Of a stretch of 64,000 nt of DNA, positions 48,825-64,000 are shown in pieces. This stretch comes from a virus. Every line of letters starts with the position of its first letter. The stretch's first letter is position 1. The notes below the pieces were generated by a model. The model searched no databases. It saw only the letters and a program-made list of their open reading frames with translations, and had not been told where the DNA came from. The position numbers and the translations under genes were made by a program. The DNA lies in the IMG/VR virus record IMGVR_UViG_3300045988_051499. One strand, 5' to 3'.

Positions 48825-48849
48825 ATCGGTTGAGCTATAGCCCTGTCAT

Positions 48850-49411
48850 GTGGACCTAACGGGAGTCGAACCCGTGTCCAAACAACCCTTATTACAAGGA
48901 TAACGTGCGTCTCATTTTTATTACATCAGCTAGTGAGTTCTAGCATTTAGATAGTTTTATTAGAAGAGCTGGATTCTTTACAGTAGAGGTGAACCAGCAG
49001 TCCTCCTACTAACTAATTTACAAACTACCAAACTGGGGGGCTGACTAGAAGTCATTCTTCCACCACTCCATTTACGTTGGAGAACGTCTATTTGTAGCCC
49101 ATAGATAGGCAGTGGAGATTTCAGCTCTACTAACCTTTGGCTTTCAAGTTAATGCATCTAAGCTTCACTGTAACCTGTAGGTACTATGATTCTTCCCTGA
49201 AGGTCTCGTTATAACACTTAGATACAAACCTCTTCTGTTTCTAGGTCTCTCCAGTAACCCGACTTGATTAATAGTGTCTATTAATAAGCCAGCAGCTTAG
49301 GCTGCCATTCTTACAGGTGCAATTTCTGCAGTTATTTGTTTTCTTCGTTTAAAGAGATTGCGCTCTACACGTCCTTATAATTCGTAATCGCCTGTCAAAT
49401 CCAAGTAGGCC
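48850..49411 (-). ncRNA. ssrA: tmRNA (ssrA), one-piece, unusually long
   Basis: 5' GGGCCTACTTGGATTTGACAGGCG (cf. E. coli GGGGCUGAUUCUGGAUUCGACGGG); 3' TTTGGAC-ACGGG-TTCGACT-CCCGT-TAGGTCC-A (cf. E. coli UUUCGGAC-GCGGG-UUCAACU-CCCGC-CAGCUCC-A-CCA); acceptor 7 bp with G3-U70; tag ORF GCA GAA ATT GCA CCT GTA AGA ATG GCA GCC TAA (AEIAPVRMAA) at 49296..49328 with resume codon 84 nt from the 5' end, out-of-frame TAA 2 nt upstream as in E. coli, and stop codon in a hairpin loop GCAGC-CTAA-GCTGC. Confidence 0.7.
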
Positions 49412-49454
49412 CATGTTCCAGTTTATCTCTGATTAGAAAACTGGAGAAAAGAAA

Positions 49455-51302: not shown

Positions 51303-51375
51303 TGGACACGCAGGGACTCGAACCCTATCTTCCGGTGTGCAAAACCAGCGCTCTAGCCATTTGAGCTAACGGCCC
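51303..51375 (-). tRNA. tRNA-Ala(TGC), atypical acceptor
   Basis: D arm GCTC-AAATGGCTA-GAGC, anticodon arm CTGGT-TTTGCAC-ACCGG, T arm TAGGG-TTCGAGT-CCCTG, G3-U70 present, but acceptor pairs 5-7 are mismatched; 3' end GTCCACA. Confidence 0.5.
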
Positions 51376-51976: not shown

Positions 51977-52220
51977 ATAGTTAATTTTCTCCACGGGTGT
52001 AGATAAGTACCCCTTTGGTACTTACCTTTTAGTAGTATCTTTACTCTAGACCTCTATAAGGAGGCGGAATAGTTCCAGAAACTAACCATGTATAGCTCTT
52101 AGAACTCTGTTCAAAATACCACTTAGCAGCTTTCTTCACAACATTAATTACTTTCTTCATAACATCAAAGTTTAAAATTGTTAATAATTAATCTAATTCA
52201 GAGCCACAAAAGGAGTTTCG

Positions 52221-52299
52221 TTGCGGAGGTAGGATTCGAACCGTTTATGACGATTTCTAGGTTATGAGCCTAGCGAGATGACCACTTCTCTACTCCACG
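52221..52299 (-). tRNA. tRNA-like, CAT anticodon, initiator-like C1-A72 but disrupted T arm (possible pseudo-tRNA)
   Basis: acceptor CGTGGAG/CTCCGCA with C1-A72 mismatch; D arm GAGA-AGTGGTCA-TCTC; perfect anticodon arm CTAGG-CTCATAA-CCTAG; T-loop TTCGAAT present but flanks AACGG/CCTAC do not pair and about 6 extra nt sit before it. Confidence 0.35.
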
Positions 52300-53694: not shown

Positions 53695-54036
53695 TTAAGA
53701 TAGTAATTCCTGTGCCTCAATCTCGCCGATTATTTTAGTAACCGCAATCTTGAACGGATTTCCCTTAGTCTTGTCAAACAGATGTACATCACGTACCTCG
53801 TCAACCTTGTCAGGAACATTCACCTTTCTTTTCCCTCTCTCTATGGTCTTCCAAGTGATGACTTCGCACCGTTTCACGTCATAAACGCTATCGTTGCGGT
53901 CTACATAGACCCTGAAGAAGTTCTTCTTATGCTTCACAATCTCAACTCTTTTAAAGTTTTTGATGTTAGCATGAAATTTCAAATCGCATTTTCCGTTAGG
54001 TAAGAAAATCAATTCTGCCATAATGATACTCCGCAT
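53695..54036 (-). CDS. hypothetical protein
   Basis: 113-aa ORF. Confidence 0.35.
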   Translation of the reverse strand: MRSIIMAELIFLPNGKCDLKFHANIKNFKRVEIVKHKKNFFRVYVDRNDSVYDVKRCEVITWKTIERGKRKVNVPDKVDEVRDVHLFDKTKGNPFKIAVTKIIGEIEAQELLS

Positions 54037-54157
54037 AGTCGGAGATTCAAAGTTAAACTATGTTAATTCCAGTCTTTCGTCTGGCACTCCACCTCGTTTT
54101 AACCAATAGCTACTGTTCTTCACTACTTGAGCTAAGCTCTAAACTGGGATAAAGGTA

Positions 54158-54541
54158 TTATTCTATATAAATAAATGGTTTTCCAAATTCTTGCCTGAAA
54201 GACTCAAGCCAGCCTTCCATTTCCTCATCACTATCAAAATAGATAGACTCATCATGTCTCTCAGAGAACTCTAGAATAATATGCGGCTTCTGGTATACTA
54301 TTCCATCCTTGTAGAAGGACGTTCTCTTACTAATTGATTCGAGCATCCCTTTCTCAGAGTAAGTCCCAAAGCATGGGTCTAGAAGATACCAATAATCAAT
54401 ATGCCTTTTCCAGAATAAAAATTTGGTATCCGCTATTCTATGCTTCCATTCTGGATGTTTTCTAGTTTTAAAAACTAGTATCCTCTTTATTAAATTTCCA
54501 TTAATATATTTATCCATAATTAATCCCAATATTCTGGACAA
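54158..54541 (-). CDS. hypothetical protein
   Basis: 127-aa ORF. Confidence 0.35.
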   Translation of the reverse strand: MSRILGLIMDKYINGNLIKRILVFKTRKHPEWKHRIADTKFLFWKRHIDYWYLLDPCFGTYSEKGMLESISKRTSFYKDGIVYQKPHIILEFSERHDESIYFDSDEEMEGWLESFRQEFGKPFIYIE

Positions 54542-54936
54542 TCATCTGTCGTTAATAATCCTTTCTCGCATAGACCTCCATCATAGAATATACATGATGA
54601 GCATGAAAGATTGTCCCTGGACTCATATTCCTGAATACCTTCCTGGATATCTTTCTTAGCCTTATATCTATCTTTTCTATTCTCTTTCTTATATTCGTAC
54701 TGCATCATCTTACTTCTGTAGGGAGAAGTGCAATTCTTAAGCATTTTGGCATACTTGGAATCATTAAGAAAATCCGTAATTGATTCACAAACTCTAACCG
54801 AACCGAAAGTAAATCGTGTTCTATAATCCTTAATTCCTTTTATTGGAACATAAAATTCCTTATAAGAATTGTAGATTTTTTTAGCTCTAGAAATCCACTT
54901 TCTTTTAGAAAGCTCTCTTCTCAATTCTCTATCCAT
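54520..54936 (-). CDS. hypothetical Cys-rich protein
   Basis: track ORF 54520..55083 trimmed to internal ATG (MDRELRR...) because its first 49 codons are spurious translation of tRNA-Cys (..FVGSNPTL..); C-terminal CSSCIFYDGGLCEKG...DCPEYW. Confidence 0.35.
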   Translation of the reverse strand: MDRELRRELSKRKWISRAKKIYNSYKEFYVPIKGIKDYRTRFTFGSVRVCESITDFLNDSKYAKMLKNCTSPYRSKMMQYEYKKENRKDRYKAKKDIQEGIQEYESRDNLSCSSCIFYDGGLCEKGLLTTDDCPEYWD

Positions 54937-54956
54937 AAGCAATAAGATTAGTGTAG

Positions 54957-55030
54957 AATCTAGAGTGGGATTCGAACCCACGAAACACGGTTTTGCAGAC
55001 CGTTCCCTTAGACCGCTCGGGCATCTAGAC
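54957..55030 (-). tRNA. tRNA-Cys(GCA)
   Basis: acceptor GTCTAGA/TCTAGAT, U73, anticodon arm ACGGT-CTGCAAA-ACCGT, T arm GTGGG-TTCGAAT-CCCAC. Confidence 0.8.
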
Positions 55031-55057
55031 ATAAAGGGGAGACTAGCTCCCCAAGTT

Positions 55058-56470
55058 TTATAGTACCAAAGAGTTGTAAGCACCTCTACGATACAGAGAC
55101 GGTTTACTATTTGGATCTTTAATCCAGTAGTAATTAATTTCGTTGCCGTCTTTAGTAACTACGATTCCTAGTTTCTTGTCAATCGCAATAATTTCGTCAT
55201 CATAGAAGTCATCTCCAACTGCCAGATTTGCGAACTTAATATCCGAAGATACATAGTAATATGACAGATTGTGGAAATTGTGGCGGCGATATTCATAATA
55301 CTCGTTAAGAGCTTTTCTTTCCTCAACAGTACAGTTATCCTCATCGTCTACAATGGGCTTTGGCATCGGATTGTTGAATCTCTCAACAGCTTTGGAGAAC
55401 TCTTCAATAGAGAATTTATTCTTATCAGCAGAAATCTCACCAGCATATGCATAACCTCTAATGCAGGAATAGTCATACTCATTAGTTACTACGTTGAAGA
55501 AGCCTTTAGCTCTTCTCAATCCTTCTATACCGTGAATATTGACCTCATTAACTATAGTTTTGAGAATATCAATAGTAGATATAGTCAAAGAATCAATGAA
55601 ATCAAGCAAATCTTGACGAGCTTCCGGCACTTGAAGTGCGTCGTCCAGATATTCGTTCACAACCTTCAAATCCAAGTTGCCAAATTCCTTGACATAACGG
55701 ATTCTAGACGGACGTCCTACCATATTCTCATTGATGGTCATAGCATTAGTAGTAAGCAGGAAAACCCTGCGATACTTAGAGTTGTAAACACCGTCCATGA
55801 TTTGCAAGATAGTAGAATCCGATTCACTGAAATTCTTTTCAAATTCATCCAAGAACAGAATGCAATCTCCTTCAATACCAGAAAGGAACTCAATCATAGA
55901 TTGATTATGGTCTCCCATATCCTTTACGATAATGATGGGCAGATTTAGCTTGTTAGCCAGTTCCTTAGCAGTAACAGTCTTTCCAGTGCCCTTTGTACCA
56001 GTAAGCATAATTCCGAGATTGCCTTCTGTAGCGTGATACGTCTTAATTACATGGTCAATAAACTCGTTCTGCAAACCATACATTTTGTACGGGAATACAA
56101 ACTTATCCGCATATCTGTCTAGGTGATAACCTGTCATTGTCAGACAAATACTGTAGATTCCAACTGGGAGAGACTGCTCAACGCTATAGCCTGAGCTTAC
56201 CTGGGTATATGTAGACCCAGAACACATCCAAACTTTGTTCATTTTTTCTTTTTCTAAGTTACTTAAAACAGATGCCTGTTTGAGACATCCTACTAATTGA
56301 TTAGCTATAGAATCTATAGCTTCTTTGTTATCAGTTTCCTCTGAGAGTCTTTTTACAAACCACTCTTTAGAACGGGCAACTATTTGCTCATCAGTCTCAT
56401 TTTCAGAGATTGTTTCAGCAAATTCATGGTAGATACTAGTCAGCTTACCTTCTAATTCTTCTACGGTCAT
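55058..56470 (-). CDS. AAA+ ATPase
   Basis: Walker A GIMLTGTKGTGKTVTAKELANKL, Walker B ILFLDEFE. Confidence 0.6.
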   Translation of the reverse strand: MTVEELEGKLTSIYHEFAETISENETDEQIVARSKEWFVKRLSEETDNKEAIDSIANQLVGCLKQASVLSNLEKEKMNKVWMCSGSTYTQVSSGYSVEQSLPVGIYSICLTMTGYHLDRYADKFVFPYKMYGLQNEFIDHVIKTYHATEGNLGIMLTGTKGTGKTVTAKELANKLNLPIIIVKDMGDHNQSMIEFLSGIEGDCILFLDEFEKNFSESDSTILQIMDGVYNSKYRRVFLLTTNAMTINENMVGRPSRIRYVKEFGNLDLKVVNEYLDDALQVPEARQDLLDFIDSLTISTIDILKTIVNEVNIHGIEGLRRAKGFFNVVTNEYDYSCIRGYAYAGEISADKNKFSIEEFSKAVERFNNPMPKPIVDDEDNCTVEERKALNEYYEYRRHNFHNLSYYYVSSDIKFANLAVGDDFYDDEIIAIDKKLGIVVTKDGNEINYYWIKDPNSKPSLYRRGAYNSLVL

Positions 56471-56472
56471 TA

Positions 56473-56637
56473 GTAATCCTCCTCGTTATGTTCATTAGTT
56501 ATGAGAGAACGAGCCTTTTCCATACCAGATTCGTAAGCCTCTGTAACAAACACCATGGCAGTTTTTAGGTCCATTTGACCCATGGAATTGCCATTGTCTA
56601 CCATTTCCTGAATAATTTCACTTAACTCTTTCATATT
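56473..56637 (-). CDS. hypothetical small protein
   Basis: 54-aa ORF (MKELSEIIQEMVDNGNSMG...) below the track threshold; immediately upstream of the AAA+ ATPase gene. Confidence 0.25.
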
Positions 56638-56656
56638 ATTTAATAAATAAAAGTTG

Positions 56657-56738
56657 TAGGGTAGGAGGGACTCGAACCCTCACGCCTTGCGGCACTAGAT
56701 CCTAAGTCTAGCGCGTCTACCAATTCCGCCACTACCCC
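56657..56738 (-). tRNA. tRNA-Leu(TAG)
   Basis: near-identical D region to E. coli tRNA-Leu (GTGGCGGAATTGGTAGACGCGCTAG), anticodon arm CTAGA-CTTAGGA-TCTAG, long variable arm, T arm GAGGG-TTCGAGT-CCCTC, A73. Confidence 0.85.
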
Positions 56739-56743
56739 AACTG

Positions 56744-57205
56744 TTAGGTTGCTTTTATTTCTTTAGCAACCTTAACCATTTCGTTATATTTCTCTACTAC
56801 CTTATTAAAGTCTTCCTCAGATATTTGAAAAACTTTGTGAGAGTTTCCATACCACTCTTCTTGACCAGGAAGCCACGTTATATTAATATATCTCTTCTTT
56901 TCTAATTCCATATGTACCTTAGATGAATCAATATAAACTGAATAGGCATCCTCTTCGATTCTACTACTTCGTGGATCTGTTGGGTCGGATGTAAGTCTGA
57001 AAAACATTGTTGACATACCATTAAAGTCTATCTTGAAACACTTTCCTATATAGCTTTTAAGTAGTGCTTTATGTCTATTGTCGCTGTCTACCTTCTCTTG
57101 GTGTCTCTTCAGTTCTTCTTCCTTAACATATTCATTATACTCTCTTAGAGTGCTGTCTGGATGCTTATCCAGATATTCTTCTATAGGACTCTTTCTTCCC
57201 CACAT
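56744..57205 (-). CDS. hypothetical protein
   Basis: 153-aa ORF. Confidence 0.35.
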   Translation of the reverse strand: MWGRKSPIEEYLDKHPDSTLREYNEYVKEEELKRHQEKVDSDNRHKALLKSYIGKCFKIDFNGMSTMFFRLTSDPTDPRSSRIEEDAYSVYIDSSKVHMELEKKRYINITWLPGQEEWYGNSHKVFQISEEDFNKVVEKYNEMVKVAKEIKAT

Positions 57206-57206
57206 A

Positions 57207-57623
57207 TTATACTACTTTAAGATGGCAATAAATACTAAATTCTGGAATTGGAATCCAAGTTGCAATACCATTGCTATCTACTGGTTTACCCTTGTTGATT
57301 GTACAAATAGTGATATGAGGTTTAGCATTTGCACAAGGCAGATATTGGTCTCCCAATTCTACTCCAAAAGCTATTGCTTTCTCAGAAATCCCTATTTTGT
57401 TTACAATTAATCGAAAATTACCATCTATACGATATTGTAGGTCATTAGCCATCTTTTCTTCATGTTGATTTTTATGGAGAAGAGTGCAATGATCTAAATA
57501 AATAGTACTTCCTCTTTGGAACACCAGATTGCAAATGATGGGATTTCCAATGATAACTTGCATAAGTTTGTTTCTAGTTGGTTCATCTAAGAACAATCCA
57601 AAATACTGATAATTCATACTCAA
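57207..57623 (-). CDS. hypothetical protein
   Basis: 138-aa ORF, TTG start. Confidence 0.35.
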   Translation of the reverse strand: MSMNYQYFGLFLDEPTRNKLMQVIIGNPIICNLVFQRGSTIYLDHCTLLHKNQHEEKMANDLQYRIDGNFRLIVNKIGISEKAIAFGVELGDQYLPCANAKPHITICTINKGKPVDSNGIATWIPIPEFSIYCHLKVV

Positions 57624-57638
57624 AAATTTAAATATTTG

Positions 57639-57711
57639 TTGGGAGTGCCAGATTCGAACTGACGACCTCTGGGCTATGCACCCAGCGAGCTGACCACTGC
57701 TCTAACTCCCA
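57639..57711 (-). tRNA. tRNA-Met/Ile(CAT) with unusual anticodon loop
   Basis: perfect acceptor TGGGAGT/ACTCCCA, D arm GAGC-AGTGGTCA-GCTC, anticodon stem CTGGG/CCCAG (three G-C pairs as in initiators but 1-72 is paired), loop TGCATAG has G at position 33. Confidence 0.55.
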
Positions 57712-57771
57712 TAGATTAATACATTGTCCTAGGCTATACCAATCTATACTATCTATCTTCCGATAAACAGA

Positions 57772-57815
57772 TGTGGACCTAGAGGGCTTTGAACCCCCGA
57801 CCTTCTGATTATGAG
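57772..57815 (-). other. tRNA 3'-half-like element (anticodon loop CTCATAA to acceptor 3' strand)
   Basis: minus strand CTCATAA-TCAGA-AGGTC-GGGGG-TTCAAAG-CCCTC-TAGGTCC-A-CA; overlaps the stop codon of the HNH gene; last 10 nt identical to the tmRNA 3' end. Confidence 0.45.
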
Positions 57816-58357
57816 TCTTTCTTTCTTATTCCTTGAATAATTCTACGAGTTAATCCAAAATGTTGCGCAACTTTCTCCCAATTCTTAAGTATTTCATACT
57901 GCTCATTTACTTCTTCTAGAGAGGGGTAATGTTTATCAGCATCTCTGCATTCCTTAGAACAGTATATCTTACCCTTAGATTTAGGAAATCTTTTGCCGCA
58001 TACTGGGCATACAGACCCAGTCATATTTTCAAAAGACGTTTTATCTTTAGCTTCAGTATTAACTAAATCCTCTACTTCGTCCATTCCCAAGTGAGGATTA
58101 TGTACTTCTCTATGACAATTAGCGCATAGAAGTTGACATTTATCTACTTCCTCTTTAAGCCTTTCTAGACTTGTATTAGATAAATGTCTCATATCTAACT
58201 GAAACTCTTTCTCATCTGGATTGATATGGTGAAATTCTAGAACAGCTATGTTTCTATCATAGCCACATAGTTCACATTTACCACCACGAGATTTTATTAG
58301 CTCTAATTTGCGCTTTAAACCTCTTAACTTTTGTGTATTATAATCATTGTAATTCAT
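57809..58357 (-). CDS. HNH homing endonuclease
   Basis: CELCGYDRNIAVLEFHHINP...CANCHREVHN HNH motif; track ORF (57809..58465, TTG) trimmed to first ATG (MNYNDYNTQK) because the upstream part overlaps a tRNA-like structure. Confidence 0.6.
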   Translation of the reverse strand: MNYNDYNTQKLRGLKRKLELIKSRGGKCELCGYDRNIAVLEFHHINPDEKEFQLDMRHLSNTSLERLKEEVDKCQLLCANCHREVHNPHLGMDEVEDLVNTEAKDKTSFENMTGSVCPVCGKRFPKSKGKIYCSKECRDADKHYPSLEEVNEQYEILKNWEKVAQHFGLTRRIIQGIRKKDS

Positions 58358-58430
58358 ATACAAATATATATGAAAATAATCATAATACCAAATGTTTTGG
58401 TGCAAAATTAAAAATTCAATCCAGAAGTTG

Positions 58431-58507
58431 TAGGGACGGTGGGGTTTGAACCCACGTGCGACCAACTACCCTTTCTACAAGGTATAAGCTTGAGGGGATA
58501 CGTCCCT
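58431..58507 (-). other. tRNA-like element lacking a D arm (acceptor plus T arm minihelix with internal hairpin)
   Basis: perfect 7-bp acceptor AGGGACG/CGTCCCT, T arm GTGGG-TTCAAAC-CCCAC, A73; internal hairpin CCCT-CAAG-CTTATAC-CTTG-..-AGGG with a 7-nt anticodon-like loop; no D stem can be formed. Confidence 0.35.
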
Positions 58508-58525
58508 ATCTGACTCATAATTAGT

Positions 58526-58553
58526 TGCTCTGACCTGGCTGAGCTATAGGTCC
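58526..58553 (-). other. tRNA 5'-half-like element (acceptor 5' strand plus D arm)
   Basis: GGACCTA-TA-GCTC-AGCCAGGTCA-GAGC-A; acceptor strand perfectly complementary over 7 nt to TAGGTCC of the 3'-half element at 57775..57781, about 720 nt away on the other side of the HNH gene. Confidence 0.4.
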
Positions 58554-58631
58554 GATTTAGTCTCACTATCGTAGGACTATAAGCTCCCAACGTCCGACTG
58601 GCTACGGAAGGTTATTTACCGGTCTAATAAC

Positions 58632-58904
58632 CTATTCTACTGTTAGTTCCTGTTCGCAGACATATTCAACTAGCAATTCATCATTACCAAATACCATAAT
58701 CTGCAATACCACAATTTCCGGCCCATCCTTACTTAGTCTTGGTCTACTAGAGAATGCATATTCTGACATAGGAGACCTAGAATGAAATCTTACGAATTTA
58801 CTTCTAGGATGAGACCTCTGGATTATTCCGCTACTGGGAGTATTTAGAGATACTTTACTAGTTATCTCCCCAATATTGAAAGAAGTTACGTTAAGCATAA
58901 GCAC
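58632..58904 (-). CDS. hypothetical protein
   Basis: 90-aa ORF. Confidence 0.3.
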   Translation of the reverse strand: MLMLNVTSFNIGEITSKVSLNTPSSGIIQRSHPRSKFVRFHSRSPMSEYAFSSRPRLSKDGPEIVVLQIMVFGNDELLVEYVCEQELTVE

Positions 58905-59100
58905 TTATTGATTGACATTTAAATATTATAGTTTTACCAATAATATCATCAGGCTTTATATTAAACTTAGAAAACTCCTCAACCAGCTCATTCATATCTT
59001 CTACAGAATATGTCTCTCCAATAACTCTCATATTATCTAGAGAAGTTTGGAAATTCTTTAGTAGTTCTGTAAGTAAACAGCTATTAATTATCACTTTCAT
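58891..59100 (-). CDS. hypothetical protein
   Basis: 69-aa ORF. Confidence 0.3.
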   Translation of the reverse strand: MKVIINSCLLTELLKNFQTSLDNMRVIGETYSVEDMNELVEEFSKFNIKPDDIIGKTIIFKCQSISAYA

Positions 59101-59101
59101 T

Positions 59102-59260
59102 TTACTATGATTTGCTCTTCAGGTTTTAACTTAGCTGGAGCATCAGAGTGTAATTTACCACATCTTACACACCAACAAACTCCAAATGAATTTTCTCTCA
59201 CTTTACATCTGCCTTTCTCACAGATTTTAACTACTTTTCTGTAATTCTCCTTATCCATAA
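59102..59260 (-). CDS. hypothetical Cys-rich small protein
   Basis: 52-aa ORF below the track threshold; Cys-rich zinc-ribbon-like sequence (CEKGRCKV...CWCVRCGKLH). Confidence 0.25.
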
Positions 59261-59419
59261 TTATATAATTTAGAAATACAGCCTTACTACCCCTATGTTC
59301 CTAGTTATTCTTTAGCTAGCTTTAGATTATTACTAGGTAATACCGCAACGGATTTATTCAGCTGACTTTACCGCCTCTTGGTATGCAAGGCTAGGTCTCC
59401 CTAGCGAAGCTGTATTTAG

Positions 59420-59491
59420 TTGGGCTACCAGGACTCGAACCTGGACTCTCAGAACCAAAATCTGATGTGACTACCATTACACCATAGCCCA
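59420..59491 (-). tRNA. tRNA-Gln(TTG)
   Basis: perfect acceptor TGGGCTA/TAGCCCA, anticodon arm TCAGA-TTTTGGT-TCTGA, T arm CCAGG-TTCGAGT-CCTGG. Confidence 0.8.
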
Positions 59492-59554
59492 GTTTAGCTT
59501 AACTATTCTCTCGAACCGTTAAGCCCATATTTACCATGAAAAACACACAATGCG

Positions 59555-59631
59555 TGGGACGAGGCAGGATCGAACTGCCGCTATCGTCCTGGATTTTCAG
59601 TCCAGCGCTCTACCTACTGAGCTATCGTCCC
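59555..59631 (-). tRNA. tRNA-Phe(GAA)
   Basis: perfect acceptor GGGACGA/TCGTCCC, D arm GCTC-AGTAGGTA-GAGC, anticodon arm CTGGA-CTGAAAA-TCCAG, 9-nt variable region, T arm GGCAG-TTCGATC-CTGCC. Confidence 0.8.
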
Positions 59632-59637
59632 ATGTAA

Positions 59638-59877
59638 TTAGATACTCAAATCTAATACTTTTTTGTTCCACCAGTTAGTTAAATCTTGTAAAGAAAACTT
59701 AAATTCTTCCTCAAATTTTTCTACCGGAACAGTTTCATCTCCTAATTCTATTGCCCATCTCCAGCAAGCTTCTGTTTCAGCTACGTCAATAGGCTCTTCC
59801 ATTAACCAAGTATCATCCATAAGCATATCAAGAAATGACTTATGAAGAGACTTAAAGATTTCAATTCTTTCTTCCAT
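59638..59877 (-). CDS. hypothetical protein
   Basis: 79-aa acidic ORF. Confidence 0.35.
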   Translation of the reverse strand: MEERIEIFKSLHKSFLDMLMDDTWLMEEPIDVAETEACWRWAIELGDETVPVEKFEEEFKFSLQDLTNWWNKKVLDLSI

Positions 59878-59893
59878 AACAAATTTTATTAAG

Positions 59894-59978
59894 CGGAGGT
59901 AGCTGGATTCGAACCAGCGGGACCCGAAGGCCCTCCGTCTTAGCAGGACGGTGGTTTAAGCCACTCACCCATACCTCC
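59894..59978 (-). tRNA. tRNA-Ser(GCT)
   Basis: perfect acceptor GGAGGTA/TACCTCC, G73, anticodon arm CCGTC-CTGCTAA-GACGG, long variable arm AGGGCCTTCGGGTCCC, T arm GCTGG-TTCGAAT-CCAGC. Confidence 0.85.
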
Positions 59979-60040
59979 AAATTGCGAAGGGGCTTTTGTT
60001 ATACTTTACTATTGAAATTGTAAAGCCCCTTCGCTGTGAA

Positions 60041-62014
60041 TTACTTCACTTCTTCAAACTCAGTTGTTTCAGCTTTCTTCTCCTCCAACTCTTTCTTGCC
60101 GAGAACACTTTTCAGTGTATCAGCGAAAGGTATAGAGCGAAGCAAGTCGAACGCAGGATTCAAGTTCTCAGCAGTTTTAGCCATGAAGTTACCAGCGGTA
60201 TTCTCGTTACCATAAACAGTAACCTGTCCAAGGTGAACGTGTTCAAACATCTGAGCAGATGCTTCTGCAATACCTGTCAACTGGTCAACTGTCTTGTACT
60301 GAACCACCATTTCAGGAGTCAAGCCAGATTCAATCATCTTCTGGACTGCCAGAGCAGGAGCCATTTCAATAGCCTGGACTTTATCAGCCTCAGCCATCAA
60401 AGATGCTCTCTTACCCTCAGCTTCAGCAAGCAGTTTCTTTCTTGTACCTTCAGCTTCGGCTTCTAGCTGCAACTTTGTAGCATTCGCTTTAGCTTCTGCT
60501 TCTTTCAGAATTTCAGCAGCCTTAGCTTCTGCTTCAAGTACAGCTTTCTGCTTAACAGCTTCTGCTTCAATCGTGATACGTTCCTTCTCCTTTTGAGCAG
60601 GAACAATCGTCTCAGCATGAAGCTTAGCTTCCATAGCCAATGCAGCTGCTTCGTTTACTTCCAGTTGCTTTTCTTGCTTAGTTTTCTCGATAGTCATTTG
60701 AGCTTCTACCTTAGAAGTTCCTGCTACCTTTTCAGCTTCAGCCTTAGCTTTCTCGGCCTCTCCCTTAGCTTTAGAGACTTCAATTGTGGCATTTTGTTCT
60801 GCCACTCCTGCAATCTTATCAGCTTCAGCTGCCTTTACACGCTTGTCTGACTCATACTTAGCAACTGCAGCTTCCTGTTCGTTAATTGCCTTTTGCGTCT
60901 CAGCTTCCTGTTTTTGTTTAGCCTGAGCAATACGAGTTTGTTTCTCTGCTTCTGCTTCTGCTTTCTTAGAGTCAGCTTCTGCTTTAGCCTTAGCTACATT
61001 AGCCTCAGCCAGTGATTCAGACTCTGCTCTGTTAGAATCGGCTTCTGCTTGAGCTTTAGCTATAGCTGAAATTTTCTCAGCTTCTGCTTTAGCTTTCTCT
61101 GATTCCGCTGCAGTATTAGCTTTAGCAATATTGGCAGCTTGTTCAGCTTTCTGATTAGCAATACCTGATTGCTTATTCTTCTCAGCTTCTGCAAGTTTGA
61201 TTTCCTTCTCCTGGTTAATCTCTGCCACACGAACCTCTTGCTCTTGTCTAGTCTGAGCAACAGTAGTTTCACGCTCTTTCTCAGCGTCTGCTACAGCAAT
61301 TTCACGTTGCTTGTTGGTTTCTGCAATCTGAATATCTCCTTTCTTTTTCTCTTCTGCAATGTCAGCCTGTGCCTGAGCAAGAGCTTTAGTTGCAGCTTTC
61401 TGACCTAGATTCTTGATATAGTTTGCATCATCCGAAATATCGGCATTGTTAATGTTGATAATACTGAAACCTACCTTATTCAACTCGGTCTCAATATTCT
61501 CCTTAGCTTTGCCGATAAACTTGATTCTGTCAGCGTTAATTTCCTCAATCGTCATCGTAGCCATCAAGCTTCTCACTTCACCAATGAGAATATCCTTGAT
61601 TTGGTCTGAGATTTCAGAAGTTTTAGCTGTTAAGAATCTACTTGCAGCGTTTTGCATTAATGTTTGAGTAGTTCCAATACCAGTGGTCAATGTTACAGGA
61701 ATAGTTACCTTAATCATTTGACTGGAAACACCAGTAACATTTACTTGAATTTGGATAGGTTTCAAGGACATTTTAGCCCAGTCTTGAATGACAGGCATTA
61801 CGAATGTACCTCCGCCGTGGATGATTTTAGACGGCAGTATAACTTCCTCCGTTTTACCAGTCTTCTCGTTAACTACCTTCTTCTTTCCTGCCTTACCAAA
61901 TACTACCAGGATTTCATCACTAGCACACTTACGATACCGAGACAAAAGTCCGATAAAAGTTACAACTACTAAGAGTACAATAACACCCGCTACAATAAGA
62001 GTTTCTGTTGTCAT
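60041..62014 (-). CDS. SPFH/band-7 (flotillin/YqiK-like) membrane protein with long Ala/Glu/Lys coiled-coil
   Basis: N-terminal TM helix, SPFH domain, then about 350 aa of EAEAKA-type repeats. Confidence 0.65.
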   Translation of the reverse strand: MTTETLIVAGVIVLLVVVTFIGLLSRYRKCASDEILVVFGKAGKKKVVNEKTGKTEEVILPSKIIHGGGTFVMPVIQDWAKMSLKPIQIQVNVTGVSSQMIKVTIPVTLTTGIGTTQTLMQNAASRFLTAKTSEISDQIKDILIGEVRSLMATMTIEEINADRIKFIGKAKENIETELNKVGFSIININNADISDDANYIKNLGQKAATKALAQAQADIAEEKKKGDIQIAETNKQREIAVADAEKERETTVAQTRQEQEVRVAEINQEKEIKLAEAEKNKQSGIANQKAEQAANIAKANTAAESEKAKAEAEKISAIAKAQAEADSNRAESESLAEANVAKAKAEADSKKAEAEAEKQTRIAQAKQKQEAETQKAINEQEAAVAKYESDKRVKAAEADKIAGVAEQNATIEVSKAKGEAEKAKAEAEKVAGTSKVEAQMTIEKTKQEKQLEVNEAAALAMEAKLHAETIVPAQKEKERITIEAEAVKQKAVLEAEAKAAEILKEAEAKANATKLQLEAEAEGTRKKLLAEAEGKRASLMAEADKVQAIEMAPALAVQKMIESGLTPEMVVQYKTVDQLTGIAEASAQMFEHVHLGQVTVYGNENTAGNFMAKTAENLNPAFDLLRSIPFADTLKSVLGKKELEEKKAETTEFEEVK

Positions 62015-62029
62015 CTTTAAAAATTCTTT

Positions 62030-62557
62030 TTAGTTAAAATAATACTTTCCATTCTCAAATTTTGAAATTCTCACTTTGTCCCCGTTTTTATACGTCTTAT
62101 GCTCTTCTTCAGCATAAGCTGACAATTCTTGAAGCATTCCATTTATCTCAACTAAGATAACAGAACTACCACCAGAAATATCATTAGGGATAGTGATTGT
62201 TCCAATTCTCCCAACTAAGGCTTCACCCTTTTCAGGAATAACTTGATGTTGGAGTTTTAAACAAAGTTTATATAAGTAGTAAAGTATAACCACAAAAAGA
62301 ATACCGCATATTAATGCGATTAAATAATCGTACCATTCTATAGAATGAGAAACGGAATGCTTAATACAAAGCCATCCACTTGCTCCCATTACAAAATGTA
62401 CTAGTCCTTTAAAAGAGACAATATCACTCACATCCATGTCCAATTCTCCATCTAAATCTACATCTAAGTCAGTGTCGCCACCAAACCAAGAGAGTATGAA
62501 CTGAACAATAAAAATGCCATACGAAATGGCTGCTAAGAGATAATAAGTTTCGCTCAT
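62030..62557 (-). CDS. NfeD-like membrane protein (SPFH partner)
   Basis: three TM helices then C-terminal OB-fold-like beta segment GTITIPNDISGGSSVILVEINGMLQELSAY; adjacent to SPFH gene, the usual NfeD arrangement. Confidence 0.45.
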   Translation of the reverse strand: MSETYYLLAAISYGIFIVQFILSWFGGDTDLDVDLDGELDMDVSDIVSFKGLVHFVMGASGWLCIKHSVSHSIEWYDYLIALICGILFVVILYYLYKLCLKLQHQVIPEKGEALVGRIGTITIPNDISGGSSVILVEINGMLQELSAYAEEEHKTYKNGDKVRISKFENGKYYFN

Positions 62558-62772
62558 TGTAATTTACATAACCCTCCTTGAGTCGTATTATGAAGTACGT
62601 AATACACTCTCCCAGGAACGGAGACTCTATAGACATTCATGTGACTATTAGGGTCGGTATATACCTTTATAACCGAAAAATGATTTCGGTCTTCCCTAGA
62701 AGTAAACGAACAACAGACTGCCGTAACTATTGCTACAACAGCCATCATACAAATTAATCTAATTCTCTTCAT
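62554..62772 (-). CDS. hypothetical small secreted/membrane protein
   Basis: 72 aa with N-terminal hydrophobic segment. Confidence 0.3.
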   Translation of the reverse strand: MKRIRLICMMAVVAIVTAVCCSFTSREDRNHFSVIKVYTDPNSHMNVYRVSVPGRVYYVLHNTTQGGLCKLQ

Positions 62773-62795
62773 AAGTTTTTAGTTATTGATATTTG

Positions 62796-62868
62796 CATAG
62801 GATAAAGGATTCGAACCCTTACCTTCGGTTTTGGAGACCGACGTGCTAACCGTTAACACCAATCCTAT
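62796..62868 (-). tRNA. tRNA-Trp(CCA)
   Basis: perfect acceptor ATAGGAT/ATCCTAT, anticodon arm TCGGT-CTCCAAA-ACCGA, T arm AAGGG-TTCGAAT-CCTTT. Confidence 0.8.
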
Positions 62869-62877
62869 AGTTAATTG

Positions 62878-62966
62878 CGGAAGGACAGGGATTCGAACCC
62901 TGGGGACGTTTTACCGCCCGACGGTTTTCAAGACCGTTGCATTAAACCTGACTCTGCCACCCTTCC
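62878..62966 (-). tRNA. tRNA-Ser(TGA)
   Basis: acceptor GGAAGGG/TCCTTCC, G73, anticodon arm ACGGT-CTTGAAA-ACCGT, long variable arm CGGGCGGTAAAACGTCCC, T arm CAGGG-TTCGAAT-CCCTG. Confidence 0.85.
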
Positions 62967-63062
62967 AAAGGGCTAACCAATTAGTTAGCCTAACATACAT
63001 CCAAGAAGCAATAATACACAGAATATAGCTAGAATACACCAGCCTATAGCCTGGACTGCTCC

Positions 63063-63542
63063 TCAGCCAAATACACAAATCATAGAAGAAATAAAGAATA
63101 CTGCGCCACCGACTACACTTATCCATCCGCCAGCATCTTCATCGTCTTTAGATAGTTTTCCTCTTCCAGTTATTAGTAAAAATAGAGATATTCCTAGCAG
63201 TAGTATACCTATTACGACTCCAGCTATCTCCTTATATAGTAATTTCCATACTACAATAGTTATCGCTGTTTGTCCTAGATTAGATTCAGATATTCTTATA
63301 GCCGAATCTTCAACTGCTTTTAGTGTCTCATTTACTGCAACTCCAATCTCCTTTCCGAGACTTGCATATTCAGATACTTCTTTGATTTCTCCTTTTATAG
63401 CCTTCTCGGTAGTTATTTTCTCGATTTGGGTTCTCGTCTCTCCAGGCAACCTATCATAATCTTCTTGAGATATGGTTATTTGAGAGAATGAGGCTACACT
63501 CATAAAGAGCATAGCCACAATAAGCATTAAAAATTTCTTCAT
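63063..63542 (-). CDS. hypothetical membrane/secreted protein
   Basis: signal peptide and C-terminal TM helices. Confidence 0.35.
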   Translation of the reverse strand: MKKFLMLIVAMLFMSVASFSQITISQEDYDRLPGETRTQIEKITTEKAIKGEIKEVSEYASLGKEIGVAVNETLKAVEDSAIRISESNLGQTAITIVVWKLLYKEIAGVVIGILLLGISLFLLITGRGKLSKDDEDAGGWISVVGGAVFFISSMICVFG

Positions 63543-63799
63543 TTGTTTAGTACTCTTCTTTTAACTATTCCTGTTCCATTGCACATACTACATGATTCGG
63601 TATCACAAAGAGCACCTGGACCTAGTGTAAGGATGCCTAATACAACTCTAGACCCAGCTGACATCTTTACTTGACCAATTCCATCACAATTTGGGCAATA
63701 TATCTCTTCATACTTTATGGTATCAGTTTGATTGTGATTTACTACCTTATCGTGTGTGCATGAGGCAAGCAATAGTAGAATTACAATTAGTCTAGCCAT
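63539..63799 (-). CDS. putative Cys-rich lipoprotein
   Basis: MARLIVILLLLASC lipobox; CPNCDG...CSMCNG. Confidence 0.35.
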   Translation of the reverse strand: MARLIVILLLLASCTHDKVVNHNQTDTIKYEEIYCPNCDGIGQVKMSAGSRVVLGILTLGPGALCDTESCSMCNGTGIVKRRVLNK

Positions 63800-63999
63800 T
63801 CAAATTCTCCTACATTGAAGTGTCTGGCAAAACAAGCTTCGAATACGAGTTTGCCAAACTGAGTTGATACATATTTGGCAATCTCCTCAGATTTGCACGC
63901 AAGCAACCCGACAGCGGAACCGGCCGCGCCGACGCCATAGCCAGAACCGAAACAGCCGAGACCCGCAATGCCGCCACTAACCGCGCGGCCGCCCACCAA
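63787..63999 (-). CDS. glycine-zipper protein (partial; N-terminus may lie beyond the window)
   Basis: Gly/Ala-rich GxxxG repeats; GC-rich codons explain the local GC jump. Confidence 0.3.
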   Translation of the reverse strand: MVGGRAVSGGIAGLGCFGSGYGVGAAGSAVGLLACKSEEIAKYVSTQFGKLVFEACFARHFNVGEFEWLD

Positions 64000-64000
64000 C

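Follow-up and report, generated by a model that had tools for sequence, protein, structure and literature searches.

The viral record IMGVR_UViG_3300045988_051499 from IMG/VR, of which a 64,000-nt stretch was analyzed (the window), contains a gut-phage tRNA(CAU) gene divided in two by a 705-nt insert, which itself carries a second, structurally unusual tRNA gene and an open reading frame (ORF) for an HNH homing endonuclease. The reading favored here, with a probability of roughly 0.58, is that the insert is a homing cassette lodged in the anticodon stem, which inactivates what is probably a tRNA-Ile2(CAU) and substitutes its own non-canonical tRNA-Ile(UAU) for the lost function. Loci from other phages used for comparison are designated by L numbers.

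The 5′ half of the split gene (tRNA nt 1–29) occupies 58553–58523 on the minus strand and reads GGACCTA-TA-GCTC-AGCCAGGTCA-GAGC-A-ACT, that is, the 5′ acceptor strand, TA, a D arm, A26, and A27-C28-T29. The 3′ half (nt 30–73) follows on the same strand at 57817–57774, as GA-CTCATAA-TCAGA-AGGTC-GGGGG-TTCAAAG-CCCTC-TAGGTCC-A, comprising G30-A31, a CAU anticodon loop, the 3′ stem strand, the variable loop, the T arm, the 3′ acceptor strand and the discriminator A. Most of these parts were already recognized in a preliminary description made from the sequence alone. Its letters for the acceptor strand and D arm (58553–58526) and for the stretch from the anticodon loop onward are correct, as is the 7/7 pairing of GGACCTA with TAGGTCC, except that it carried the 3′ half on to 57772, two bases (CA) past the true end at 57774. 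It also reported the 5′ strand of the anticodon stem as missing, having found ATCTGACTCATAA on the opposite strand only, where it does occur (plus strand, 58508–58520). That strand is present after all, divided as ACT|GA around the insert, with A27-C28-T29 at 58525–58523 and G30-A31 at 57817–57816; it was overlooked because the insert sits within the stem, between nt 29 and 30. Once the halves are joined, ARAGORN recognizes an ordinary tRNA(CAT) gene whose acceptor stem is paired 7/7 and whose anticodon stem has 4 bp and an A27.A43 mismatch. In the window as it stands, ARAGORN and Rfam call nothing spanning the halves; the 19–21 ordinary tRNAs and the transfer-messenger RNA (tmRNA) that they report are all on the minus strand. 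A joined RNA, if made, would be 75 nt long, with the junction ...GAGCAACU-GACUCAUAAUCAGA... (also joined GGTCAGAGCAACTGACTCATAATCAGAAGG), and an unspliced one would have the junctions GAGCAACTAATTATGAGTC and AGAAAGAAAGACTCATAATC. Judged by their sequences, the two halves are real and belong to a single tRNA(CAU) gene, far beyond what chance would produce.

The limits of the insert (57818–58522, minus strand, between T29 and G30) are fixed by alleles that lack it (L001:2383–2458; L265 and L307). The preliminary description had proposed looking for an intact tRNA(CAT) at the empty site of related phages, and such genes were found in four genomic contexts. One is in MT838061, a 5.8-kb human-fecal phage contig that is 96% identical to the window over 36% of positions 54000–64000. 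Its 100% match begins exactly at 57817, and at the same locus it has an uninterrupted tRNA(CAT) reading ...GAGCA-GCTGA-CTCATAA-TCAGA.... In L265 and L307, 176 of 178 positions are identical to the left flank of the window plus the 5′ half, and the sequence then continues directly with GACTCATAATCAG... / GACTCATAATCAGG.... The joined sequence of the window corresponds to the alleles in L231, L235, L248, L265, L304, and L307, with a single A/G difference at nt 43, and its 5′ half is identical to the 5′ part of the intact alleles in L265, L307, L231, L235, and L248. Many phage tRNA(CAU) genes have the intact anticodon-arm motif; a scan of IMG/VR found it at at least 120 loci.

Empty and filled alleles can be paired four times over (L001 with L004 and L006; L265 and L307 with the window; L231, L235, and L248 with L009 and L143; L278 with L008). 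The same cassette, with HNH proteins at least 97% identical, is found at the same nucleotide position in tRNA(CAU) genes that differ in sequence and in flanks, with acceptor strands GGACCTA, GGGCCTG, GGGCCTC, or GGGCCTA. Such precise presence and absence at one site of otherwise collinear genomes, in four contexts, is the signature of homing. There are also signs of co-conversion: chimeric exons are seen in L010, L005, L144, L146, and L011, and the bases next to the cassette, ACT...GACTCATAATCAG, have moved with it into tRNAs that differ farther out. Chimeras can arise when tRNA arrays are assembled from metagenomes, and some loci do have oddities (for example, an extra GGGG in L005), so the arrangement might be put down to misassembly or to unrelated tRNA fragments that happen to be neighbors. 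This is refuted, however, by the independent recurrence of identical junctions: besides the window, they are present in eleven IMG/VR contigs, which come from three IMG source datasets (prefixes 3300045988, 7000000069, and 3300029391), and in a human-gut assembly from ENA (L143). The halves also equal intact alleles base for base.

The ends of the insert may hint at how it first arrived. A transposon with 9-bp terminal inverted repeats (TTATGAGTC...GACTCATAA) and a 2-bp target duplication, GA, was suggested by L088 (ACTGA...GACTCA). This reading of the repeats was set aside, as there is no transposase and homing accounts for the later spread; a possible interpretation is that they are the trace of an original, illegitimate insertion into a staggered cut. 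The dinucleotide preceding TTATGAG varies between AA and GG, which, together with the arrangement in L088, hints at a founding insertion into a 2-nt staggered cut at G30-A31. An inversion between the 10-bp inverted copies, acting as a switch to restore the tRNA, was worked out on paper and rejected: it cannot restore the gene because the full anticodon arm would be rebuilt beside the 3′ half, leaving nt 1–26 detached.

The surroundings of the cassette are also a deletion hotspot, with deletions in sister genomes (L014, L094, L142, and L059). These start within the cassette or shortly beyond it and stop at the gene at 56470–56634 (56470–58357 by comparison with the window), removing the 3′ half, an initiator-like tRNA(CAT) at 57638–57711, two ORFs, and a tRNA-Leu.

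The joined tRNA has the CAU anticodon, A37, A38, A73, and the pairs C4:G69 and C5:G68. In E. coli, TilS uses C4:G69 and C5:G68 to tell tRNA-Ile2(CAU) from tRNA-Met (PMC11947777). The split gene is the only CAU tRNA in the window with C4C5; the other three have G4 with G5 or A5. Its best full-length match in E. coli (76%; 5,426 genomes) is a CAU tRNA annotated as tRNA-Ile, it also matches ileZ of Stx phages, and similar phage genes are labeled either Ile or Met. The interrupted gene is probably a tRNA-Ile2(CAU), which would decode AUA only after lysidine modification. Just one of 120 loci with an intact target also holds the non-canonical tRNA, and C4C5 tRNA(CAU) genes are present at two of about 110 loci with the non-canonical tRNA, both counts covering loci of about 9 kb; on this scale, the two appear almost to exclude each other.

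The tRNA inside the cassette, which would be the replacement if the favored reading is right, is 77 nt long (58431–58507, minus strand), with the anticodon TAT at 58484–58486. It scores 31.7 bits with the Rfam tRNA model and is not found by ARAGORN. The preliminary description had placed an HNH ORF between the tRNA halves, which is the case, but this second tRNA-like gene lies there as well. It belongs to a family with at least 118 phage loci in IMG/VR and 54 distinct sequences (L022–L142, L149, L151, L186, and L218), retrieved with a pattern built from the inner tRNA and a Streptomyces phage homolog. The common fold has a 7-bp acceptor stem, U8-A9, a 3-bp helix (11–13/37–39) closing the anticodon arm, a 4-bp anticodon stem with a canonical 7-nt loop, a 2-bp hairpin (42–43/51–52) with a UGGUNNC loop, a T arm with a TTCRA loop, and A73. 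No D hairpin is present between nt 10 and 25; the closing helix and the 2-bp hairpin take the place of a canonical D arm.

This fold is strongly backed by covariation. In an alignment of 32 sequences, 96.7% of the cells are paired, against 72.6% in shuffled alignments (none of 500 shuffles reached the observed value) and 33–49% in slid controls, and 14 of the 21 pairs show changes on both sides. The closing helix 11–13/37–39 is paired in every case, with two of its three pairs covarying, and the small hairpin is A-U in 19 sequences and G-C in 13. The anticodon loop is always 7 nt with U33 and a purine at 37 (CTTATAC, CTTATAA, CTTATAT, or CTGATAA); the anticodon is invariably UAU or GAU, and so always isoleucine, and A73 is present in 54 of 54 sequences. 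A covariance model (R1) gives family members 78–99 bits and ordinary tRNAs at most 32, and recovers members beyond the search pattern, with CGG/CCG or CTC/GAG in the second helix. A tmRNA-like domain or decoy was considered and not retained: the tmRNA model reaches 23.8 bits and covers only the acceptor and T arm, and a decoding tRNA is the simpler account because the anticodon arm covaries and always has an isoleucine anticodon. By these comparative criteria, the inner element is a real, if unusual, tRNA-Ile.

The family is essentially confined to phages. Six matches were found in 185,579 bacterial and archaeal species genomes, all in contigs of metagenome-assembled genomes, and 80 GenBank phage records carry it, nearly all unannotated; 77 of these are Streptomyces phages and one is a crAss-like Kehishuvirus of Bacteroides. 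An HNH gene lies just downstream at about a third of the loci. Chimeric or truncated members also occur (L080, L081, and L225). In L080 and L081, the non-canonical tRNA-Ile continues from its T loop into the 3′ acceptor strand (CGGGACC-A) of a split tRNA of the L011 type, which, from the sequence, shows recombination between tRNA genes at conserved T-loop sequence.

The HNH gene (57809–58357, minus strand; ATG at 58357) encodes 182 amino acids plus a stop. The protein matches PF01844 of Pfam just above the cut-off (21.6 vs. 21.4 bits) and PHROG 2255, “HNH endonuclease,” at E = 3.6e-26; a PDB sequence search for a solved relative gave only marginal matches. Residues C28xxC31, H43H44, N61, and C78xxC81H82 are invariant among five homologs, and homologs begin at this ATG. 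A Zn-ribbon-like CPxCG is conserved, and a conserved C-terminal segment is read as a putative DNA-binding helix-turn-helix. As described earlier, the stop codon, TAA at 57811–57809, falls within the anticodon loop. The final three codons, GAC TCA TAA, coincide with nt 30–38 of the tRNA, leaving no non-coding intron sequence on the 3′ side.

Between the inner tRNA and the HNH start is an AT-rich spacer (58358–58430, minus strand) with the promoter-like hexamers TTTGCA-16-TATGAT and one arm of a palindrome. A scan for promoter consensus sequences was weak (8 sites, with 4.9 ± 1.7 expected), and no minus-strand terminator was found. The palindrome (inverted repeat I1, 58335–58359 with 58364–58388) is imperfect, with 25-nt arms 76% complementary and 4 nt apart, and the whole (58335–58388) spans the start codon at 58357–58355, where it could block translation initiation or serve as an operator. 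Four other loci (L015, L111, L150, and L151) have a short helix-turn-helix-like frame preceding the HNH relative, downstream of the non-canonical tRNA. These frames are broken by in-frame TAG codons (e.g., ...CCAAAATAGAAATAGAGAGG...) and are either pseudogenes or from phages that reassign TAG.

HNH relatives of at least 56% identity are all directly downstream of a tRNA of an AUA-decoding type. This is the non-canonical tRNA-Ile(UAU) in the window, L144, L146, L016, L088, and L015; a canonical tRNA-Ile(UAU) in L012, L013, L147, and L145; and, in L011 and L148, a C4C5 tRNA(CAU) whose anticodon stem is unlike the target motif. Relatives below 55% identity are found beside various tRNA genes in phage tRNA arrays, such as Arg-TCT and Met. 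The split halves are not maintained in relatives. The anticodon stem of L010 pairs at one of five positions; the acceptor strands of L146 and L011 match, but their anticodon stems are incompatible (5′ GGAC with 3′ TCAGG); L144 has two acceptor mismatches; L088 has lost T36 from the loop, and its ORF continues through the 3′ half; and L017 has a deletion within the T arm of the 3′ half. Only the 3′ half is left in L012 and L013, and neither half in L016. In L142 and L059, the 5′ half, the segment next to it, here called the anti-loop, and the inner tRNA are kept, and the HNH gene and 3′ half are deleted. With the halves decaying in this way, what selection seems to maintain is the inner tRNA and mobility rather than an outer tRNA that could be spliced.

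The proposed cycle would begin with the HNH enzyme cutting intact tRNA(CAU) genes with the arm xCTGA-CTCATAA-TCAGx in co-infecting phages. The break would be repaired from the cassette-bearing genome, with the conserved D-arm and T-arm segments as short homology, and repair would copy in the cassette and co-convert nearby exon bases. Because there is no ribozyme, the interrupted tRNA is most likely not restored and would be a pseudogene from insertion on; the cost would be compensated by the tRNA-Ile(UAU) that the cassette brings along, a putative AUA decoder independent of lysidine modification. The element would work, in effect, by cutting the resident AUA tRNA and installing its own. Of the readings offered in the preliminary description, it is the disruption of a tRNA gene by an endonuclease insertion that fits best. 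The 5′ half, a 10-bp helix formed by the anti-loop, and the 3′ half are predicted to give the transcript a tRNA-like shape, a scaffold surrounding the cassette, which, as a guess, would serve the processing or stability of the endonuclease mRNA.

Several points weigh against this reading. We infer from sequence both the identity of the target as tRNA-Ile2(CAU) and decoding by the non-canonical tRNA; the mutual exclusion is a local one; and some of the defective halves, coming from metagenome assemblies, could be assembly errors. In the window itself the halves are flawless and their joined form is a living allele, so splicing would yield a good tRNA. A further point is the left end of the insert (58508–58522, minus strand; AATTATGAGTCAGAT), which contains the anti-loop ATTATGAGTC at 58512–58521. 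These ten bases (insert bases 2–11) are the exact reverse complement of G30–T39, the start of the 3′ half, and with the following AG they are complementary to C28–T39 of the intact tRNA. The opposite-strand copy noted in the preliminary description proves to be a conserved pairing partner of the anticodon loop. The arms were also detected as an inverted-repeat pair (I2: 13 nt, 92% complementary, 694 nt apart), and the exact 12-mer occurs once in the window. In the minimum-free-energy fold of the 782-nt precursor, a helix of C28-U29 plus the 10-bp anti-loop pairing forms alongside the outer acceptor stem and the D and T arms (z = −6.1; 20 shuffles), so that the precursor is predicted to be a scaffold shaped like a tRNA whose anticodon loop is replaced by the cassette.

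The anti-loop pairing has also been kept through sequence change. L004 has two substitutions in the region, A to G and C to T, both compatible with G.U pairs; in L007 an A.C mismatch becomes G-C; and in L144, C32 of the loop is changed to T, synonymously for the ORF, together with G to A in the anti-loop. All five substitutions, a small number, preserve pairing, and they point to selection on an RNA helix joining the halves, in two lineages whose HNH proteins are only 73% identical (L144 and the window type). This suggests a constraint at the RNA level that a dead pseudogene would not need, and the helix resembles the intron-anticodon pairing of archaeal and eukaryal pre-tRNAs. Pairing within the left end itself (ACTAA-TTATGAG-TCAGA, a hairpin like an “inverted anticodon arm”) was also considered and fits the window, L004, and L007; the long-range helix is preferred because in L144 only pairing with the 3′ half survives. 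Further anti-loop variants were sought by a scan of IMG/VR, which returned only copies of the known type, and L088, L146, and L011 have no anti-loop. By hypothesis, it may belong to a tRNA-like 3′ structure on which the stability or processing of the HNH mRNA depends, it may copy the target site in the manner of an operator, or it may guide splicing; the pairing could reveal either an mRNA-stabilizing tRNA scaffold or a new splicing route.

One rival reading, the one preferred in the preliminary description, is a group I intron that splices itself and encodes the HNH homing endonuclease. An endonuclease-encoding intervening sequence in a tRNA(CAT) gene is indeed what is found, and such introns do occur in bacterial tRNA genes, including tRNA-fMet(CAU) (PMC13011429; PMC3984707). 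The 5′ exon ends in U, as it should; the first bases of the insert are complementary to the 3′ exon, resembling a P10 guide, and the AG beyond them might base-pair with C28-U29. Most else disagrees. The insertion is in the stem (29/30), whereas a survey of group I introns in bacterial tRNA genes placed all 333 in the anticodon loop (PMC13011429). No U.G pair can be made at U29, whose only partners are A58511 (AG with C28-U29, 2 bp) or those in a 3-bp ACU/AGU stem, so that P1 would have only 2–3 bp. Group I introns universally end in G (omega-G). This insert ends in A (...AAGAAAGAAA, then G30), and moving the 3′ site past G30 would leave a 16-nt anticodon arm unable to form. The ORF crosses the 3′ junction, and the only structured RNA 5′ of it is a tRNA, an ordinary one in L011, L012, and L013. 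Since a tRNA abuts the HNH start codon in L011, L016, L088, L144, and L146, there is no room for a ribozyme core. The Infernal comparison proposed earlier likewise gave no match to RF00028 or to any other intron or ribozyme family (Rfam cmscan of 57500–58800, both strands, E ≤ 10), nor did a scan of the window at gathering thresholds find a group I intron. Within the insert, Rfam gave no group I, group II, or small ribozyme, and a manual search for P1, omega-G, and core elements failed. A group I intron is accordingly judged very unlikely.

A route depending on proteins is less easily dismissed, if still rather unlikely. Here, the anti-loop helix and acceptor stem would shape a precursor from which the cassette is excised, with RNases of the host or phage (RNase P and RNase Z acting on the inner tRNA, along with another endonuclease) and an RNA ligase joining nt 29 and 30, or the halves would function as a two-piece tRNA. 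The insertion would then be phenotypically silent, as splicing makes it for classical mobile introns. The intact halves of the window, the tRNA arms and anti-loop helix of the predicted precursor, the pairing kept in L004, L007, and L144 (by a double change in one case), and the persistence of the split layout with its anti-loop in two lineages all fit such a route. However, a bulge-helix-bulge, in which a 4-bp helix lies between two 3-nt bulges, cannot be drawn, the junctions being about 11–12 bp apart at opposite ends of the helix with a single 1x1 A.C mismatch between, and to our knowledge no bacterial tRNA-splicing endonuclease is known. The halves of L010, L146, L011, and L088 could not form a functional tRNA even if joined, three of these four (L088, L146, and L011) have no anti-loop, and deletion derivatives retain the inner tRNA and lose the 3′ half. 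The full claim of a mobile, ribozyme-free phage tRNA intron, with the 705-nt insert removed by protein enzymes or the halves acting as a two-piece tRNA, is quite improbable by our estimate; if true, it would be without precedent in the bacterial world as a case of tRNA splicing by proteins or of a tRNA assembled from split halves. Alternatively, the cassette may be chiefly a weapon or exclusion device, selected for the loss of tRNA(CAU) by competitors, with the inner tRNA a mere hitch-hiker from whichever tRNA array the endonuclease gene resided in. The distant HNH relatives (below 55% identity) beside various array tRNAs would suit this, as would the free-standing homing endonucleases known from phage tRNA regions, such as SegB of T4 (PMC13096335). 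It is nonetheless unlikely, in that an AUA-type tRNA is linked in all ten close lineages, with three tRNA types, which is hard to obtain by hitch-hiking alone, and the deletion derivatives keep the inner tRNA. Break and replacement by a homing cassette remains the reading that is preferred.

Several known systems are similar in part. The group I introns of bacterial tRNA genes share an endonuclease-encoding intervening sequence in a CAU anticodon arm, presence/absence polymorphism, and an insert whose 5′ end is complementary to the adjacent exon. The cassette differs in having no ribozyme core, terminal G, or RF00028 match, in its position in the stem instead of the loop, in its phage host, and in holding a whole tRNA gene. 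A 2014 review placed all phage introns then known in protein-coding genes and none in a tRNA gene (PMC3984707). In the “intronless homing” of T4 SegB (PMC13096335), a phage endonuclease gene beside tRNAs targets the tRNA region of relatives and spreads with neighboring markers, and the HNH genes of L015, L016, L145, and L148 are likewise free-standing. By contrast, the cassette studied here is inside a tRNA gene, at a fixed nucleotide position between its halves, and the marker carried along would be a functional substitute for the broken gene. The T4 segB gene is located in the T4 tRNA region.

In “fractured genes,” too, a homing endonuclease gene splits a host gene into collinear halves, which are rejoined as proteins by split inteins through trans protein splicing (PMC2677866); no restoring activity is evident for the split tRNA, and a replacement gene is supplied instead. 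The anticodon stem is among the non-canonical intron positions of archaeal tRNAs. With the protein-spliced introns of Archaea and Eukarya and the split tRNAs of the Nanoarchaeum type, the cassette shares an insert that pairs with the anticodon loop and lengthens its helix, and halves held together by complementary RNA; archaeal tRNA introns at non-canonical positions have been reported (PMC4090602). It differs from them in having no bulge-helix-bulge, in its bacterial or phage setting, and in that its complement pairs with nucleotides of the mature tRNA. The inner tRNA, for its part, is like the D-armless mitochondrial tRNAs in having acceptor, anticodon, and T arms without a canonical D arm; a 2020 review of these and other non-canonical tRNAs mentions no phage case (PMC7609411). 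Unlike them, it is phage-encoded and of full length (77 nt), its nt 11–13 pair with the strand after the anticodon to form a 3-bp closure, and there is a 2-bp hairpin with a GG-containing loop at the position of the variable region.

Some other RNA features of the window are recorded here. Just upstream of the split tRNA (58554–58632, minus strand) is a conserved, non-coding stretch of 79 nt with three hairpins, also present in L243, L278, and L313. It has no Rfam match, and a comparison of the window with L243/L313 shows three base pairs in which both partners are altered (GGTTATT..AATAACC vs. GGTTGTC..GGCAACC; AGTC..GACT vs. AGCC..GGCT); it is a candidate small structured RNA or processing signal. 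The tmRNA gene (48848–49412, minus strand; 70.4 bits, not called there by ARAGORN) is 565 nt long against a model of 374 positions, and aligns with insertions of 157 and 42 nt in pseudoknot hairpin loops. A tRNA(CAT) at 52220–52299 (minus strand) is 80 nt long, with an extended and poorly paired variable and T region (Rfam, 39.2 bits), and a 73-nt tRNA at 51303–51375 (minus strand) is called by Rfam (39.5 bits) and missed by ARAGORN.

Both the split tRNA and the inner tRNA escape standard annotation. The inner tRNA family makes it possible to ask how a tRNA of this shape is accommodated by isoleucyl-tRNA synthetase, EF-Tu, and the ribosome. Mobile endonuclease genes are known in self-splicing introns, in inteins, and as free-standing genes; here, one is found inside a phage tRNA gene without a splicing element. 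If the favored reading is true, “break and replace” would be a distinct selfish strategy, in which the substitute tRNA bypasses the essential lysidine enzyme of the host, and it would provide a mechanism for the rapid turnover of phage tRNA arrays.

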